DNA from: a virus
Virus genome (UHGV): UHGV-0152227
Length of the DNA: 43,955 bases
Strand: one strand, 5' to 3'
The notes under the pieces are model-generated. The model worked only from the letters and a program-made list of their open reading frames with translations, was not told where the DNA came from and ran no database searches. Position 1 is the stretch's first letter. Each line of letters opens with the position of its first letter. Positions 8,476 through 33,324 of this stretch are shown one piece after another. A program made the translations under genes and the position numbers.

Positions 8476-9186
8476 ATGGCTAATGCTCAAACTGCCATCT
8501 TCAAATTTGAATCTGTTAACCCTATCCGTTCCATCATTATCGATGGCCAACCATGGTTTGTAGCCCAAGACGTTTGTAGTGCGCTGCGTATCCAAAACGT
8601 CACCCAAGCACTTGAAAAACTGGATGATGATGAAAGGTCTATGTTCAACATAGGGCATGAACATCGTGCAATTTTTGACAGCCGAGTAAAAGAGATCAAC
8701 ATCATCTCCGAGTCAGGCCTCTACACACTGATCCTCCGCTGCCGCGACGCAGTGACACCAGGCACTATCCCCTACCGCTTTCGTAAATGGGTTACAGGTG
8801 AGGTTCTTCCTCAGATCCGCCGCACCGGAAGTTACATTAAAAACTCGCTCCCGCAGGAAGAACGCATAAAGATGGTTGCCGACCAGGTTGCAAACGCCAC
8901 AGCATCAGCAGTGATGCAGGCAATGAAGATAGAGAACAAAACCTACAGCGCCCCACTGAAGCCCGGCTACCGTAGCCTGATTCATTCGCCGTCTGGTGTT
9001 CTCGGCCTGACGGAGAACTCACTGCTGATGAATCTGCTGAACCAGTTACAGGAAGACGGGCACGACGTATCGGGCGCGGCGGCGGAGCTGACCACCATGT
9101 TCTGCTACATCGTCGGTGTGAGCAAATGCCTGCGTGATATCCAGACGCACGCGGAGTACATCAACGACAAGGCTGGGTTCTTCTGA
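8476..9186 (+). CDS. Antirepressor, BRO-N domain with shared C-terminal module
   Basis: ATG 8476 with GGAG RBS; BRO-N motifs (FKFESVNPIRSIIIDGQPWFVAQDVCSAL, IISESGLYTLILR, WVTGEVLPQIRRTGSY); C-terminal ~80 aa near-identical to the 41902 protein. Confidence 0.8.
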   Translation: MANAQTAIFKFESVNPIRSIIIDGQPWFVAQDVCSALRIQNVTQALEKLDDDERSMFNIGHEHRAIFDSRVKEINIISESGLYTLILRCRDAVTPGTIPYRFRKWVTGEVLPQIRRTGSYIKNSLPQEERIKMVADQVANATASAVMQAMKIENKTYSAPLKPGYRSLIHSPSGVLGLTENSLLMNLLNQLQEDGHDVSGAAAELTTMFCYIVGVSKCLRDIQTHAEYINDKAGFF

Positions 9187-9210
9187 CGGGCGGCGGCACA
9201 GGGATGTGCC
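8944..9210 (+). repeat. Direct repeat copy A (~267 bp, ~95% identical to 42379-42646): antirepressor C-terminal module plus downstream hairpin
   Basis: Aligned by eye with copy B; only a few mismatches; ends in palindrome GGCACAGGGATGTGCC. Confidence 0.9.
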
Positions 9211-9333: not shown

Positions 9334-9513
9334 ATGCGAAACGAAAAATTGCAGATGCGTAGAGCGCAAGCTGCCGCAAGACGTTCTTTCAATGGAAGCG
9401 TAGAGTACGTAAAAGTTACTATGACAAAAGATCACGCAAGTCGCGTATCCCGCGCTTTCTTTGATTCTCGTAACAATAAGGAAAATTATGAGTTCGTCTG
9501 CGTCGCAGAATGA
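9334..9513 (+). CDS. Small basic protein (59 aa), candidate antitoxin or regulator, upstream gene of a two-gene cassette
   Basis: ATG 9334 with GAGG RBS 6 nt upstream; overlaps downstream gene by 26 nt; contains that gene's RBS; below the ORF-track size cutoff. Confidence 0.5.
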   Translation: MRNEKLQMRRAQAAARRSFNGSVEYVKVTMTKDHASRVSRAFFDSRNNKENYEFVCVAE

Positions 9514-10033
9514 TAAAAATCAAATTGTCAGATATAAGGGTCGAGTATTGCATACGCAAAATTTCTCGGCCCTTTGTGCATCTGATCTTGAGCTGAAGAA
9601 AGTATCTGATGCCTTTACCCAGTATTGGAAAACGGGATACCATCCATCTCTTGGTAAAGATGCTGCATTTGCTCGTCCGACAGAAATGCTTAAACTAAAT
9701 GTCAGGCATACTCATGTCGATAACCAAGACTATATTCCAGAAGATAGTGATAAAAAACACACTGGTAAAAAATCATCTTGGGATGCATGGAAAAATATAG
9801 CGTCTGTGCAAGTAAAATGCATACCAACAAGTGATTGCTTTTTAGTTTATTCGGTAAATCACAATCGTGATGCGCTGGTTATGTTTTTTGTTGACGCAGA
9901 TGCCCACAACATAACTGAGCAAGAAGAGTTTAAAGAGGCAGCAATCACTATCAGTTATCAATTCTTTCAGAAAACAAAAACAGAACCAATGCCTTTAGAA
10001 GAAGATCTTTTTTCTGATAAATGGAAGGAATAA
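9488..10033 (+). CDS. Candidate toxin, distant resemblance to YafO-type mRNA interferases (tentative)
   Basis: ATG 9488 with AAGGA RBS; AT-rich; recalled YafO-like motifs (F-x2-Y-x3-G-x2-P-x2-G-[KR]-D-A, V-x-H-x-H, LVY...A-hydrophobic run); followed by strong terminator. Confidence 0.45.
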   Translation: MSSSASQNDKNQIVRYKGRVLHTQNFSALCASDLELKKVSDAFTQYWKTGYHPSLGKDAAFARPTEMLKLNVRHTHVDNQDYIPEDSDKKHTGKKSSWDAWKNIASVQVKCIPTSDCFLVYSVNHNRDALVMFFVDADAHNITEQEEFKEAAITISYQFFQKTKTEPMPLEEDLFSDKWKE

Positions 10034-10055
10034 GCCCGCGTTGCGGGCTTTTTTG
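10034..10055 (+). terminator. Rho-independent terminator
   Basis: GCCCGC-gttg-CGGGC followed by TTTTTTG. Confidence 0.8.
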
Positions 10056-10126
10056 TGGACGAAACAAAAGTCAGTGCTACACTCATTGACGCCACATTGA
10101 GGTGGCTTATAGATGGAAATTTCACA

Positions 10127-10288
10127 ATGAAAAAAGCATTTGCTGCACTGTTCGTTTTGTTGTCTCTGGTAGCTTCAACTCAGGCCTTTGCCGGTCGTTG
10201 TCAGCACGACAGCGATACTGCCGCTGACGGCTCCCGCTGCGGTGGGCGTTCTGCGGATTCCCGCCCTGGCGGCGGTGGCATTCGTTAA
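10127..10288 (+). CDS. Small secreted peptide (signal peptide plus ~31-aa Cys/Gly/Asp-rich mature part)
   Basis: ATG 10127; MKKAFAALFVLLSLVASTQAFA signal-like N-terminus; flanked by terminators; weak RBS. Confidence 0.45.
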   Translation: MKKAFAALFVLLSLVASTQAFAGRCQHDSDTAADGSRCGGRSADSRPGGGGIR

Positions 10289-27047: not shown

Positions 27048-27124
27048 GTGGCATTAGCTCAGTTGGACAGAGCAACCGCCTTCTAAGCGGTTGGTCGCAG
27101 GTTCGAATCCTGCATGCCACGCCA
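27048..27124 (+). tRNA. tRNA-Arg (anticodon UCU, reads AGA)
   Basis: 77 nt folded by hand: acceptor GTGGCAT/ATGCCAC, D-arm GCTC...GAGC, anticodon loop CTTCTAA, T-arm GCAGG-TTCGAAT-CCTGC, encoded CCA; differs from chromosomal argU. Confidence 0.9.
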
Positions 27125-30634: not shown

Positions 30635-31360
30635 TCATTTCACCTCCTGCGGCGGTTCTGGTAGAGGCATCCAATTGATTACATCGCATTTAGGGATGCT
30701 GATATCATCACCAAGCCACCCTTGACCTTCAGACCAGCATTGCACGTAATACCCGTATTCTGTGTTCACTACGCACCACTGCGCGTCGTTCGGCATTCGC
30801 TCACTACAGCTTATCCAACCATCCGGAGTTACCGGATAGTTGACAGCCAGTCTGCGCAAAACAGCCTTAACAGCCTCAATACGGTCATCATCAACTTTTT
30901 CTACAATATTGGAATTTAAATACTTCGAAGCCTTGCTATGCCAATCGCTGGTTTTAGGGTCTTGTCCATCCATCAAACGCCAAGCTTCAGCGATTAACTC
31001 ATAGCCAGTAACAGTGGCTTCCTGCGCATCACCAATCAGTTGTGTGATCTCTCTTTCAAGCATGCTTAGAGCGTTAGGCATTGGTTTTTCTTCCGGTACT
31101 ACTGGAACGGGTGGGGCGGCGTAGACCTCAATAATTCCATTATCAATAGGCCATTCTCCATCCTTGAGGTAGTCACTTGTGCCGTCAACTTGCTGTTCTG
31201 CAATGTGGAATGCACCTATTGGTTTTGCCTCAAGCGAGGCCAGTGCAATTCGTGCCAGTTCTTCCGCTTCTTCTGCTGGCAGTACAACGTTGCTACCAGG
31301 TCCGTATGTTTCGCGCCACTGCCTGATTGTCAGCAGTCGCTCTTTGGTAATAGTGGTCAT
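30635..31360 (-). CDS. DUF551-type protein
   Basis: C-terminal WISCSERMPNDAQW...W motif typical of DUF551 in lambdoid accessory regions. Confidence 0.6.
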   Translation of the reverse strand: MTTITKERLLTIRQWRETYGPGSNVVLPAEEAEELARIALASLEAKPIGAFHIAEQQVDGTSDYLKDGEWPIDNGIIEVYAAPPVPVVPEEKPMPNALSMLEREITQLIGDAQEATVTGYELIAEAWRLMDGQDPKTSDWHSKASKYLNSNIVEKVDDDRIEAVKAVLRRLAVNYPVTPDGWISCSERMPNDAQWCVVNTEYGYYVQCWSEGQGWLGDDISIPKCDVINWMPLPEPPQEVK

Positions 31361-31370
31361 GTGTTAGTCC

Positions 31371-31634
31371 TTATCCTGCTGTACTTTCAACTGATGAGGG
31401 GAATAAAATCTTTTCATCAAATCCGGCATTCATATCATGAACAGCAACACACCAATCCATTGACGAACGATTATCAAGAGCCTCCATGATTTCATCCATG
31501 CGGCGCAGGTCATACAGGTAAATGCTTTTATCGCCAATGGTGTAAAAACCAATTTTTTTCGGTGATGGGCAGCGATCAAGAACGTCCTGTAATTCGCTCA
31601 ACCATGCTTGTTCTTTTTTTGTCAAAGTTGCCAT
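31371..31634 (-). CDS. Hypothetical protein, ~87 aa
   Basis: ATG 31634 overlapping upstream stop; in-frame ORF extends to 31688 but overlaps the neighbour. Confidence 0.45.
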   Translation of the reverse strand: MATLTKKEQAWLSELQDVLDRCPSPKKIGFYTIGDKSIYLYDLRRMDEIMEALDNRSSMDWCVAVHDMNAGFDEKILFPSSVESTAG

Positions 31635-31635
31635 A

Positions 31636-32202
31636 TCACTCTCCTTTAATGCGAATGTCAGCGACGCGTAATGCGTGTTCCAGGTCAATCAGGTAAAGCC
31701 AACTGCCATTTTCTTTAGGTATCATGACATGTCGCTCATCTGCATTTATCGGGTGTCCATATCGAAGGTCGTAGCGAGTCGGTAATTGAACTTCCCGCGC
31801 TTCCAGTTCAGCAATGCGCTTCTCTGCGGCCTCTGCCCTGCATTGTTCCCGTTGGAACATTTTGTGGGTGCGGTCGAGCGCCTCAAGTCTGGCTGCTGAT
31901 GTTTTCTCTTCTGCTTCAAGCTCAACGCGCAGCTTCCCAACCGTAAGCGCAATATCCTCGTTCTCCTGGTCGCGGCGTTTGATGTATTGCTGGTTTCTTT
32001 CCCGTTCATCCAGTAGTGCCAGCACGGTTTCTGGTCCGGCCAGAAATTTGAAGGCGTTGAGCGCATCAATATCCACACCGTAATCTTTAAGTTCCTGTTC
32101 ACTTAACAAATCATCATCAACTGGCAACATTAACAGGCGTTCCATTGCTGGAATTGCACGTTCTGCCGCCTCACGCAGTGCCTGATAGTTAATTTTGGTC
32201 AT
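31636..32202 (-). CDS. Ead/Ea22-like protein, paralogue 3
   Basis: N-terminus MTKINYQALREAAERA nearly identical to paralogue 32500-33324; coiled-coil. Confidence 0.65.
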   Translation of the reverse strand: MTKINYQALREAAERAIPAMERLLMLPVDDDLLSEQELKDYGVDIDALNAFKFLAGPETVLALLDERERNQQYIKRRDQENEDIALTVGKLRVELEAEEKTSAARLEALDRTHKMFQREQCRAEAAEKRIAELEAREVQLPTRYDLRYGHPINADERHVMIPKENGSWLYLIDLEHALRVADIRIKGE

Positions 32203-32203
32203 A

Positions 32204-32503
32204 TCACATCACCCTGAAGCCGTTGCATTTACGTAAAAAATCGCAGATATAGCCCTTCATTTTTTCGTGCCAATCTCGATCATTCCCATTGCACCAACCA
32301 TCAGGTGGAGTCCAGTTTTCTATCAGAGCAGCCATTTTCTTTGCTTTCGCCGGAGTAGCTGTTGCGGTATCGCAGTAATGACGAGTGTCAACCAACGTAT
32401 CCATACCATCGATATCAAGTACGCAAAACCATGTGTGATTCGGCATTTCAACAGATGGTATTTGTTGCCCACGTCGACGTTTATCAATAAGACATACAGT
32501 CAC
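32204..32503 (-). CDS. Hypothetical protein, 99 aa
   Basis: GTG start overlapping upstream stop; Cys/Trp-containing. Confidence 0.45.
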   Translation of the reverse strand: MTVCLIDKRRRGQQIPSVEMPNHTWFCVLDIDGMDTLVDTRHYCDTATATPAKAKKMAALIENWTPPDGWCNGNDRDWHEKMKGYICDFLRKCNGFRVM

Positions 32504-33324
32504 TGGTTGCCTCCTTTGCGAAGCTGGGCAGCAAAGTCAACTAACCACTCAGTCATTTCAACCTTCCCTACCAGGTCTGAACCAGGGTGCATACAGCAAT
32601 CACTCTGCGCCGCTTTGAAATCCTTATACTCATATTCTTGGGCCACCAGATTTTTTGCAGCTTCTATAGCAGCATCCACCCCCTGCGCCCGAACTTCAGC
32701 CAGGAAAGCGTCGGTGGCTGGGGTTTCGACATTAGGTCGAAGCTCATAATCACAAACTCTTTCAATCCATGGTGATACTCTGTCGCATTTCCTCTTCTTG
32801 CGTTCACCGACCTTGGTTGCCTGCTGAATAATTACCCCCCAGCAAATGCTTTCGACCTCTTCGCTCCATCCATCGCAAGCATCGCCTCTATAGTCGTCAA
32901 TTGCAGCCTCAGCAGCAGCGATAGCCTCCTCAGCAGTTTTGTGACACTCGAAACTAAATTCAGAGCCATATGAGAAATACATAGCCCCGGCCTTCAGCGC
33001 CGCATTCTCCGCTGCCAGCGCCACGAGATTAGTCTCAAGCTCTGCAATTCGACACATAGCATCAATATTTGTGTCCTCCAGGCGCTTAATTTCACCAAGC
33101 AGCTCCAGTGCAACCTTTGGGTTGAACGCGGCAACATAACGAGCGTTGTTCTCTGCATTTTTCTGTCCATCAAAGCCGGTCCATTTGATAACGTCTTCAC
33201 ATCGTTCATCACCGGGCGTGTGCACCGCATAAGTACCAGTATCCGTCGAAATAAATGCGACCCATTCGTCTGGTGTTGCCTTTTCTGCCGCCTCACGCAG
33301 TACCTGATAATTAATCTTGCTCAC
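32500..33324 (-). CDS. Ead/Ea22-like protein, paralogue 2
   Basis: Shares N-terminal block with 31636-32202 and C-terminal block (AAENAALKA ... AAQLRKGGNQ) with 33321-33890. Confidence 0.65.
   Translation of the reverse strand: MSKINYQVLREAAEKATPDEWVAFISTDTGTYAVHTPGDERCEDVIKWTGFDGQKNAENNARYVAAFNPKVALELLGEIKRLEDTNIDAMCRIAELETNLVALAAENAALKAGAMYFSYGSEFSFECHKTAEEAIAAAEAAIDDYRGDACDGWSEEVESICWGVIIQQATKVGERKKRKCDRVSPWIERVCDYELRPNVETPATDAFLAEVRAQGVDAAIEAAKNLVAQEYEYKDFKAAQSDCCMHPGSDLVGKVEMTEWLVDFAAQLRKGGNQ

Follow-up and report, generated by a model that had tools for sequence, protein, structure and literature searches.

Described antirepressor systems closest to the repeat

Within a 43,955-nucleotide (nt) stretch of DNA from UHGV virus genome UHGV-0152227 (this whole stretch is hereafter the window), two genes, designated A and B, end in near-identical direct repeats at positions 8944–9210 and 42379–42646; we refer to the domain encoded by the repeat as Ant′. 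The closest described system is the repressor–antirepressor pair of Salmonella phage SPC32H (PDB 5D50; Kim et al., PNAS 2016), in which, as outlined in a passage of PMC9638917, an Ant tetramer engages a pair of Rep dimers and takes apart the Rep tetramer that binds DNA. The window resembles this system in that the genus is shared, its Rep matches the Rep chain, a further gene (ant0) corresponds to Ant at the same locus with the same LexA box, and both the sequence (E=1e-14) and the predicted fold of the repeated module agree with those of Ant. It differs in that the Ant-like domain of genes A and B is ~40% identical to Ant and is fused to a Bro-N or ORF6N portion of ~150 residues; moreover, genes A and B lie behind antisense RNAs rather than a LexA box, and they represent two extra copies, one of which is at the integrase locus. 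Based on the comparisons described below, the repeat probably encodes the Rep-binding domain of two differently built, separately RNA-gated antirepressors, an arrangement that is normal in this phage group and not the mark of a recent gene conversion.

A second relevant system is the ImmI region of phages P1 and P7, with the order c4 antisense RNA, icd, ant1/2 (Citron & Schuster 1990, as cited in a passage of PMC8198154). The window likewise has a C4-family RNA upstream of an antirepressor gene and on the same strand, with a loop complementary to the ribosome-binding region, and there are allelic loop and target specificities as between P1 and P7. Unlike ImmI, the window lacks an icd-like open reading frame (ORF) between the C4 RNA and gene A, the target is the ribosome-binding site of the ant gene, and an isrK-like terminated leader precedes the C4 RNA; in addition, the effector is an SPC32H-type Ant rather than P1 Ant, and the repressor is Rep rather than C1.

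Over-expression of a Bro-N protein of phage ZX5, the “ORF4 anti-repressor,” reduced lysogens from 1e9 to 1e6 and lowered repressor mRNA by 75% (PMC9782041). ZX5 ORF4 is like gene A in having Bro-N, a module that is 100% identical as protein, the same locus, and a 100% identical Rep; however, its Bro-N is of another sequence type, and the integrase locus of ZX5 holds no second Ant′ gene. The ZX5 report (PMC9782041) neither linked the C-terminus to SPC32H Ant nor described the RNAs.

Antirepressors gated by small RNAs are also known from P22 immI (arc, sar RNA, ant) and from the isrK-orf45-anrP genes of Gifsy-1 (PMC4825925). The likeness extends to phage TL-2011b, where a P22_AR_N gene accompanied by Arc and sar ends in Ant′, and to the isrK family, a member of which lies upstream of every A-locus gene. 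In contrast to P22 and Gifsy-1, the effector in the window is a Uetakevirus Ant′, there is no orf45 or antQ context, and the role of isrK here is putative. Iyer, Koonin and Aravind reportedly described domain shuffling in phage regulators of the KilA-N/Bro-N type in 2002. The genes analyzed here are similar in that Bro-N, AntA, ORF6N, and P22_AR_N join freely with unrelated C-terminal modules; they differ in that the C-terminal partner is tied to a solved repressor–antirepressor complex and in that the shuffling is seen at population scale within one genus.

The repeat is the shared C-terminus of two antirepressor genes

The earlier note on this DNA had described a long direct repeat, about 95% identical, at 8944–9210 and 42379–42646. 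Global alignment of these exact blocks confirmed it, with 257 of 268 aligned columns identical (95.9%) and one 1-nt gap, and identity thus remained high on proper alignment. A repeat search of the window returned the direct pair as 8931–9187 and 42366–42622 (95% identity, 33,435 bp spacing), and this direct family is the sole repeat longer than 54 nt in the window; a repeat of such length and identity in 44 kb cannot be attributed to chance. The edges of the repeat are sharp, as identity is 59.5% in the 13–14 codons upstream, 51.7% farther upstream, and 47.5% downstream. Within the repeat, the coding portion (243 nt including the stop codon) is 97.1% identical between copies, the segment after the stop codon, with the hairpin GGCACAGGGATGTGCC, is 84% identical, and the longest perfect runs common to both copies are 101, 53, and 26 bp.

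Copy A (8944–9210, plus strand) comprises the last 80 codons and the stop codon of gene A, a short spacer, and the hairpin; copy B (42379–42646, plus strand) comprises the same elements of gene B. None of the seven coding differences between the copies changes an amino acid, and the two proteins therefore share identical final 80 residues. Gene A (8476–9186, plus strand) encodes 236 amino acids (aa), with Bro-N at residues 17–112 (PF02498; 9.6e-20, 71.5 bits against a gathering threshold of 25.6) and Ant′ at about residues 153–236. Gene B (41902–42621, plus strand) encodes 239 aa, with ORF6N at residues 12–97 (PF10543; 2.8e-19, 69.6 bits against a gathering threshold of 27.8) and Ant′ at about residues 156–239. 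The N-terminal 143 residues of A and 145 residues of B gave no BLASTP alignment even at E≤100. Gene A matched phrog_130 and phrog_450, gene B matched phrog_1760 across its full length (1e-91), and both gene architectures are already catalogued as “anti-repressor” (phrog_130, phrog_1760). Matches in Pfam, PDB, and PHROGs, together with BLASTP, therefore bear out what the earlier note had said of two antirepressor genes with a common C-terminal module, a downstream hairpin, and N-termini without detectable sequence similarity.

The module and Rep match both partners of a solved complex

Both proteins matched PDB entry 5D50_E, “Anti-repressor protein” (gene A, E=1.2e-13; gene B, 5e-14), as did the module alone (1.3e-14). 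PHROGs joins the stand-alone protein Ant0 and both modules in phrog_450, which carries the label “unknown function,” and no Pfam model for the Ant′ domain was found among the matches to genes of the window and its relatives. AlphaFold (AF2) modeled the module with a mean confidence (pLDDT) of 73.9. A Foldseek search with this model gave confident matches only to the Ant chains of 5D50 (5d50_G and 5d50_H; probability 1.00, TM 0.59–0.78, root-mean-square deviation 2.3–3.4 Å), and the next match had a probability of 0.16. Based on these matches, Ant′ is evidently a diverged paralog of the 86-aa SPC32H Ant.

The window also encodes the other partner. A 194-aa repressor gene, rep (36719–37303, plus strand), lies inside the 33.4-kb interval between the repeats, and residues 1–190 of its product align to residues 2–197 of 5D50_A, “Repressor” (E=4e-42). 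Because the module and Rep match both chains of 5D50, the repeat can be read as an antirepressor effector domain that has its partner in the same prophage, and Rep is the predicted target of all three Ant domains in the window. Ant′ is predicted to bind Rep physically, and the roles ascribed to the N-terminal domains of genes A and B are likewise putative. In our assessment, the best explanation as a whole, and one in which we have good confidence, is that the repeat codes for a small helical antirepressor domain, Ant′, and ends in a short hairpin that closes the cassette.

The third Ant gene and its LexA box

The third Ant gene, ant0 (7903–8160, plus strand), encodes a stand-alone protein of 85 aa that is the probable ortholog of SPC32H Ant (5D50_E, E=4e-47) and is 42% identical to the module of genes A and B (BLASTP, 4e-17). 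It occupies the position of SPC32H ant, between the tailspike and virion genes. A stand-alone protein of ~86 aa at this position describes ant0 and not genes A and B, which are fusions, with B at the integrase locus; since ant0 is the SPC32H-type Ant at its own locus, genes A and B are therefore additional, diverged paralogs. The earlier reader had missed ant0, and the ORF listing shows a longer frame at 7780–8160.

A LexA-box-like palindrome, CTGTATAAATATACAG, is present with 0 mismatches at 7866–7881, just upstream of ant0, and the identical box is found upstream of the ant0 homologs in SPC32H, phiV10, and ZX5. Judging by this conserved box, ant0 would be the SOS input. No LexA box was found upstream of gene A or gene B at ≤1 mismatch, and LexA control of these two genes was rejected.

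Each fusion gene has its own antisense-type RNA leader

Upstream of gene A, we identified an isrK-like leader RNA (8243–8319, plus strand; Rfam RF01394, 63.5 bits against a gathering threshold of 50) with an intrinsic terminator at 8297–8313 followed by a T run, and a promoter-like site precedes it at 8208–8236. This leader is followed by a C4-type antisense RNA (8344–8427, plus strand; Rfam RF01695, 66 bits against a gathering threshold of 45), from which only 48 nt, with no icd-like ORF between, lead to the start of gene A. The C4 loop CCACUUAG (8385–8392) is complementary to CUAAGUGG (8457–8464), which overlaps the ribosome-binding site of gene A.

The leader of gene B contains a promoter-like sequence, TTGACA-18-TATATT, at 41656–41685 and an sRNA-Xcc1-like RNA with C4-like architecture (41771–41860, plus strand; Rfam RF02221, 64.2 bits against a gathering threshold of 53). 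Its loop, CUUUCGA (41826–41832), is complementary to UCGAAAG (41884–41890) at the ribosome-binding site of gene B, and a second pairing joins 41748–41757 with 41890–41899. The sRNA-Xcc1 family comprises trans-acting small RNAs in an integron or Xanthomonas context. Here, it is in neither context and instead forms part of the 5′ leader of an antirepressor gene in a prophage, where it appears to behave like an analogue of C4.

Among relatives of the window, isrK and C4 precede every A-locus gene, and an Xcc1-like RNA precedes the integrase-locus genes. The loop and its target change together in five allelic pairs, three of which are C4 pairs at the A locus and two of which involve sRNA-Xcc1-like RNAs upstream of integrase-locus genes of AntA type (loci L086 and L100). 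C4 also occurs in six relatives with two copies per convergent gene pair, and sRNA-Xcc1 likewise precedes the integrase-locus genes in L086 and L100. The P22_AR_N–Ant′ gene of TL-2011b carries Arc and a sar RNA, and the plain ant of SPC32H has none of isrK, C4, Xcc1, or sar. Small RNAs upstream of each individual gene were seen in eight relatives, L086 and L100 among them. The covariation in five pairs is good comparative evidence for translational control of the P1 c4 type, under which the antisense RNAs would repress translation of genes A and B. The different loop and target specificities imply that the regulators of A and B are orthogonal.

Taken together, these features suggest a mechanism in which three Ant-domain genes would each have their own control: LexA for ant0, isrK plus C4 for gene A, and the sRNA-Xcc1-like RNA for gene B. 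In each of the two fusion genes, the loop of the upstream RNA would pair with the ribosome-binding site of its own gene, which is the design of P1 ImmI (c4-ant), and it would do so orthogonally for A and B.

The hairpin at the 3′ edge of copy A (GGCACA-GGGA-UGUGCC; 9195–9210, plus strand) has a predicted energy of -10.1 kcal/mol. Its counterpart in copy B (42631–42646) lies between the convergent gene B and the integrase gene int and is terminator-like on the minus strand. The hairpin is exact in 68 of 108 distinct copies. We rejected a strong terminator at this site, as the energy is no better than that of shuffles and there is no clear T run on the plus strand; we regard it as a cassette-end hairpin of uncertain function.

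The module is shuffled and its protein is conserved across the phage population

A scan of IMG/VR with the 80-aa module identified 180 relatives, and about 115 loci were compared. The N-terminal partners of the module belong to four Pfam families: Bro-N, in at least five sequence types; ORF6N, in two; AntA; and P22_AR_N. The fusions occupy two loci and run in either orientation. The A locus holds the majority of copies, and many phages either have a second, convergent copy there, ~1 kb downstream, or carry the entire block in inverted form; an AntA-type gene at the integrase locus is present in a few relatives. The ORF6N version that the window carries at the integrase locus was found in no finished E. 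coli genome (5,426 searched), where similarity begins just 48 nt upstream of the block. The boundaries of the block recur in hundreds of phages with other N-terminal domains, and the AntA N-terminal domain was found with at least five different C-termini.

Several arrangements among the relatives illustrate this diversity. In many relatives, two convergent Ant′ genes flank ~1 kb of cargo at the A locus. Relative to the tailspike and virion genes, the convergent block as a whole or just its cargo can face either way, which implies inversions or swaps via the repeated module or the repeated leaders. One relative, L078, has three module copies, two of which are identical. In TL-2011b, a P22 immI-like set (31060–32244 and 31231–31298) consists of an Arc-like repressor, a sar RNA, and a 314-aa P22_AR_N protein; the C-terminus of this protein is the Ant′ module, with the join shifted slightly, to module nt 10, and the gene is convergent with a Bro-N–Ant′ gene. 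In other prophages (L122–L165), an AntA-type N-terminus is joined to unrelated C-termini, for example “...RARPMLKSLRARQFEF” and “WAIHLLRKSGWIVMPRDELL...”, which are presumably effector domains for other repressors.

A word-indexed protein search with the module gave 25 matches, mostly short fragments, and these include stand-alone Ant′ homologs of 95 aa from Klebsiella (three loci) and Raoultella. These homologs are 60–65% identical to the module, start at a Met internal to the linker, and adjoin an AlpA-like gene, a DUF1902/HicA pair, and Rap1a. In two of three such loci, the homolog sits in a small island between host genes, and in the third, an acyltransferase and a tailspike come after it.

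More than 100 nucleotide haplotypes of the module in related phages encode almost one protein. In a set of 81 copies, there were 70 nucleotide haplotypes and three protein variants, and of 51 polymorphic sites, 49 were synonymous and 45 were at third codon positions. Because these copies had been selected for protein identity to the module, conservation appears inflated in them, which to that extent weakens our reading; a set picked by N-terminal domain partly corrected for this. In the latter set of 32 genes, the module had 35 synonymous and 7 non-synonymous sites in 80 codons, and the N-terminal domain of 22 of these genes had 35 synonymous and 57 non-synonymous sites in 138 codons. Based on this pattern, the near-identity of the repeats reflects population-wide purifying selection on the protein. 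This selection on Ant′ is very strong; that the protein must fit the invariant Rep of its immunity group is a reasonable but unproven reason. The four-gamete test gave a minimum of at least 15 recombination events (Rm) within 231 bp of the module, and homologous recombination in the phage population probably swaps the module continually among cassettes.

The same data bear on whether the block owes its conservation to a role as nucleic acid, for instance as a recombination “linker” between modules or an RNA signal, and not to its protein. The match of mosaic boundaries to the block in many phages, the conserved hairpin at its 3′ edge, and the high reticulation would fit such an element, but the free variation of third positions (45 of the 51 sites) alongside a near-invariant protein indicates constraint at the protein level, and distant homologs (55–79% identity) keep the protein motifs. 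Conservation at the DNA level was accordingly rejected, as variation is almost wholly synonymous, and we regard a nucleic-acid element as extremely improbable.

The earlier note had attributed the near-identity to recent domain shuffling or gene conversion. The many N-termini found on the module strongly support shuffling; in contrast, recent conversion or duplication within the window genome finds no support. Module pairs within a contig (n=24) differed at a mean of 7.5 of 231 sites, and pairs between contigs (n=5,026) at a mean of 7.9 (Mann-Whitney p=0.29). Because pairs within a contig are no closer than pairs between contigs, near-identity is a property of the whole gene pool and not of the window genome. 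The pair in the window differs at 5 of 231 compared positions, which is typical of random pairs, and 45% of unrelated pairs differ at ≤7 sites. Although the sharp boundaries of identity would suit a recent duplication or conversion, and although the two copies with 0 differences in L078 indicate that conversion or recent exchange can happen, the seven synonymous differences between the window copies imply appreciable divergence under selection, and the same boundaries exist in hundreds of phages with other N-termini. We therefore rejected recent gene conversion on the basis of the pair comparison and consider this origin of the window repeats very unlikely.

Evidence for and against Rep as the target

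The identity of the module tracks that of Rep. Across E. coli phiV10-like phages, Rep is 98.5–100% identical and the module 97–100% identical to those of the window; the corresponding values are 78% and 79% in Tyrion (Enterobacter) and 45% and 54.5% in Klebsiella. In Salmonella phages, Rep is 42% identical and there is no Ant′ copy, only an ant0-type Ant with 37–40% identity to the module.

Several observations weigh against the proposal that the repeat encodes a Rep-binding antirepressor domain. The covariation of Rep and module involves four lineages and is confounded with phylogeny. Ant′ is about 40% identical to the crystallised Ant, and Ant′–Rep binding in the window follows by inference; the Foldseek E-values are weak (0.02–0.09), as expected for a helical protein of 90 residues; and the stability of the hairpin is unexceptional relative to shuffled sequence. 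Ant0 shares ~88% identity with SPC32H Ant, against only 42% for the two Reps, and because conservation between the Salmonella and E. coli phages is far higher for ant0 than for Rep, sequence matching of Ant and Rep is not strict and Ant′ could have another target. Finally, phage PAS61 has an identical Rep and no Ant′ gene, so the Ant′ genes are accessory.

Some of these observations would also suit an antirepressor-like Ant′ that targets the repressors of other prophages (cross-talk or anti-immunity) or a host protein, and not Rep. The presence of ant0 as the SPC32H-type, LexA-controlled Ant, to which Ant′ is only 42% identical, the dispensability of the Ant′ genes in PAS61, and the resemblance of the C4-, sar-, and Arc-gated cassettes to the secondary immunity (ImmI) regions of P1 and P22 all point in this direction. 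However, ZX5 ORF4, which has the identical module, pushes ZX5 itself to lysis and lowers rep mRNA (PMC9782041), and module and Rep identity track each other, both being invariant in E. coli phages. A target other than Rep thus seems unlikely.

Recombination between the repeats

The earlier note had also predicted that recombination between the repeats would delete ~33 kb. With an exchange between the copies, 33,435 bp would be lost, rep among them, and about 8.6 kb would remain. In E. coli, the minimum for RecA-dependent exchange is roughly 25–30 bp. Since the copies are direct and share a perfect run of 101 bp, such an exchange is plausible and the prediction is sound in principle, but no deletion junction appeared in the genomes, loci, or contigs searched. 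A synthetic junction (A-left/B-right) had no site covering ≥80% of the query in 5,426 finished E. coli genomes, and no deletion context was present in the ~115 IMG/VR loci. Because a deletion product would encode a protein identical to that of gene A, we also looked up the exact gene A protein, which is widespread; none of 27 contigs, all from the 24 index blocks (of 2,587) whose contigs are longest, had the deletion context, and all 10 contexts listed were the normal A locus. The module is beside int in only about 23 finished genomes, so the population at risk is small and this negative result is weak.

One contig hints that exchange between copies happens. The unverified IMG/VR contig 2690316323_000002 (IMGVR_UViG_2690316323_000002; 32,357 bp) has ends that overlap by 26 nt and contains, in order, the equivalent of window positions 35583–41350, an AntA-type N-terminus, a single module, and the equivalent of 9211 to 35608. 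The left side of B is thus joined to the right side of A, and the contig has no integrase, lysis genes, tailspike, or ant0. It would correspond to the exactly reciprocal circle or to a novel tandem-duplication junction, but it may be an assembly artefact, as the 26-nt overlap equals k-1 for k=27 and would fit a de Bruijn-graph cycle through a collapsed repeat. Its hybrid module has five differences to each candidate parent among the closest relatives, and the reciprocal hybrid junction was absent from the finished E. coli genomes. The right edge of the gene B cassette is the stop codon of int. In a separate contig, IMGVR_UViG_2695420596_000007 (21,599 bp), the lysis, tailspike, and ant genes are followed by ~4 kb of unmatched DNA and then by the replication and immunity genes (the equivalent of window positions 33772–38748); it lacks all virion genes and is a natural deletion derivative with its junction outside the module.

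It is therefore possible, though doubtful, that the direct repeats are an active recombination substrate, giving a regular 33.4-kb deletion (with an 8.6-kb remnant of lysis genes, tailspike, ant0, a hybrid ant, and int) or release or duplication of the 33-kb segment. The direct copies with a perfect run above the RecA minimum, the assembly of 2690316323_000002 as the reciprocal circle, and the inversions and swaps around A-locus module copies in relatives speak for this activity. However, the deletion junction was detected in none of the collections searched and the hybrid junction in no finished genome, the circle may be a graph cycle, and HEMP4 and at least 23 finished genomes retain the direct-repeat arrangement.

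A broader and more speculative reading, which we think rather unlikely, combines these elements. The three Ant genes would form a three-input switch on one invariant Rep, with LexA and two orthogonal antisense RNAs as inputs and with different N-termini of DNA-binding type. Ant′ and the hairpin would serve as a homology patch through which sensor domains and RNA specificities are swapped, and copies would exchange in cells, giving the 32–33-kb circle or tandem junction. As it stands, the repeat is an ordinary, well-explained modular architecture that is typical of the phage group.

Prophage setting and other genes in the window

The window is an E. coli prophage of the phiV10/epsilon15 type (Uetakevirus), integrated beside guaA. 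It has 96–98% nucleotide identity to TL-2011b, HEMP4, ZX5, phiv142-3, and phiV10 over large parts, and TL-2011b, HEMP4, ZX5, and phiV10 each cover 36–76% of each window half at 96–98% identity. This genome-wide similarity, the att core, and integration at the 3′ end of guaA identify it as a phiV10-like Uetakevirus. The att core ATTGAGTGGGAATGATT and the attP and attB sites of ZX5 are described in PMC9782041. An exact match to this core (0 expected by chance) at 1874–1890 on the minus strand is attL, the left prophage end; phage-to-phage similarity starts at 1874, and because the core sits there, positions 1–1873 are host DNA. The prophage extends from 1874 to just past the right end of the window, with attR just beyond, beside guaA. 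The host flank at 1–1873 encodes a glycine-zipper lipoprotein and a DUF5384 protein, which resemble yfgH and yfgI. The TL-2011b phage record takes in this host flank as though it were phage DNA.

From the left, attL is followed by spanin, endolysin, and holins, a weak hexapeptide-transferase-like ORF, the tailspike, ant0, and gene A. After gene A come the cargo (YafO-like toxin), the virion, packaging, and replication genes, a cro-like gene, and rep; RecT/exonuclease, methylase, gene B, and int complete the right end. The tyrosine integrase gene int (42655–43905, minus strand; Pfam Arm-DNA-bind_3, Phage_int_M, and Phage_integrase) is convergent with gene B. The exact gene B protein was found in 10 contigs, all beside int and guaA, with int followed by guaA-guaB-xseA.

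The contents of the 33.4-kb interval and of the predicted remnant are broadly as the earlier note had claimed, except that its “acetyltransferase” is a sub-threshold Hexapep match only (3979–4830; 22 bits against a cut-off of 27). This ORF lies on the opposite strand and has no relation to the O-acetyltransferase of Acyl_transf_3 type in TL-2011b, phiV10, and SPC32H. Between gene A and the virion genes, the cargo (9461–10288) comprises two ORFs, one YafO-toxin-like (Pfam, 25.8 bits) and one for a small membrane protein (phrog_14503); relatives vary greatly at this slot, with DUF2335, DUF4760, and other genes in it. A tRNA-Arg gene (anticodon UCU) lies at 27048–27124, amid the packaging and head genes, and is also annotated in O157 typing phages 9 and 10. 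At 32148–33740, a run of minus-strand ORFs contains three short direct-repeat families (54 nt, 83%; 32 nt, 100%; 33 nt, 91%). Equivalent genes in related contigs are Ead_Ea22 by Pfam, with an indel of ~0.6 kb among relatives, and the genes of this run look paralogous and indel-prone.

Meaning for phiV10-like prophages

With these results, an unexplained repeat becomes a defined functional unit, namely a domain that probably contacts the phage repressor. Should the repeats recombine, a lysogen might lose its virion genes and still retain tailspike, lysis cassette, and integrase; the finished genomes contain no example of such an allele. The phiV10-like prophages of E. coli carry up to three antirepressors that are separately controlled, and this bears on what triggers induction of these O-antigen-converting phages, which are common in E. 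coli, enterohemorrhagic (EHEC) and avian pathogenic (APEC) strains included. The Ant′ genes are also a clear case from nature of modules being shuffled around a stretch of protein that selection keeps invariant.

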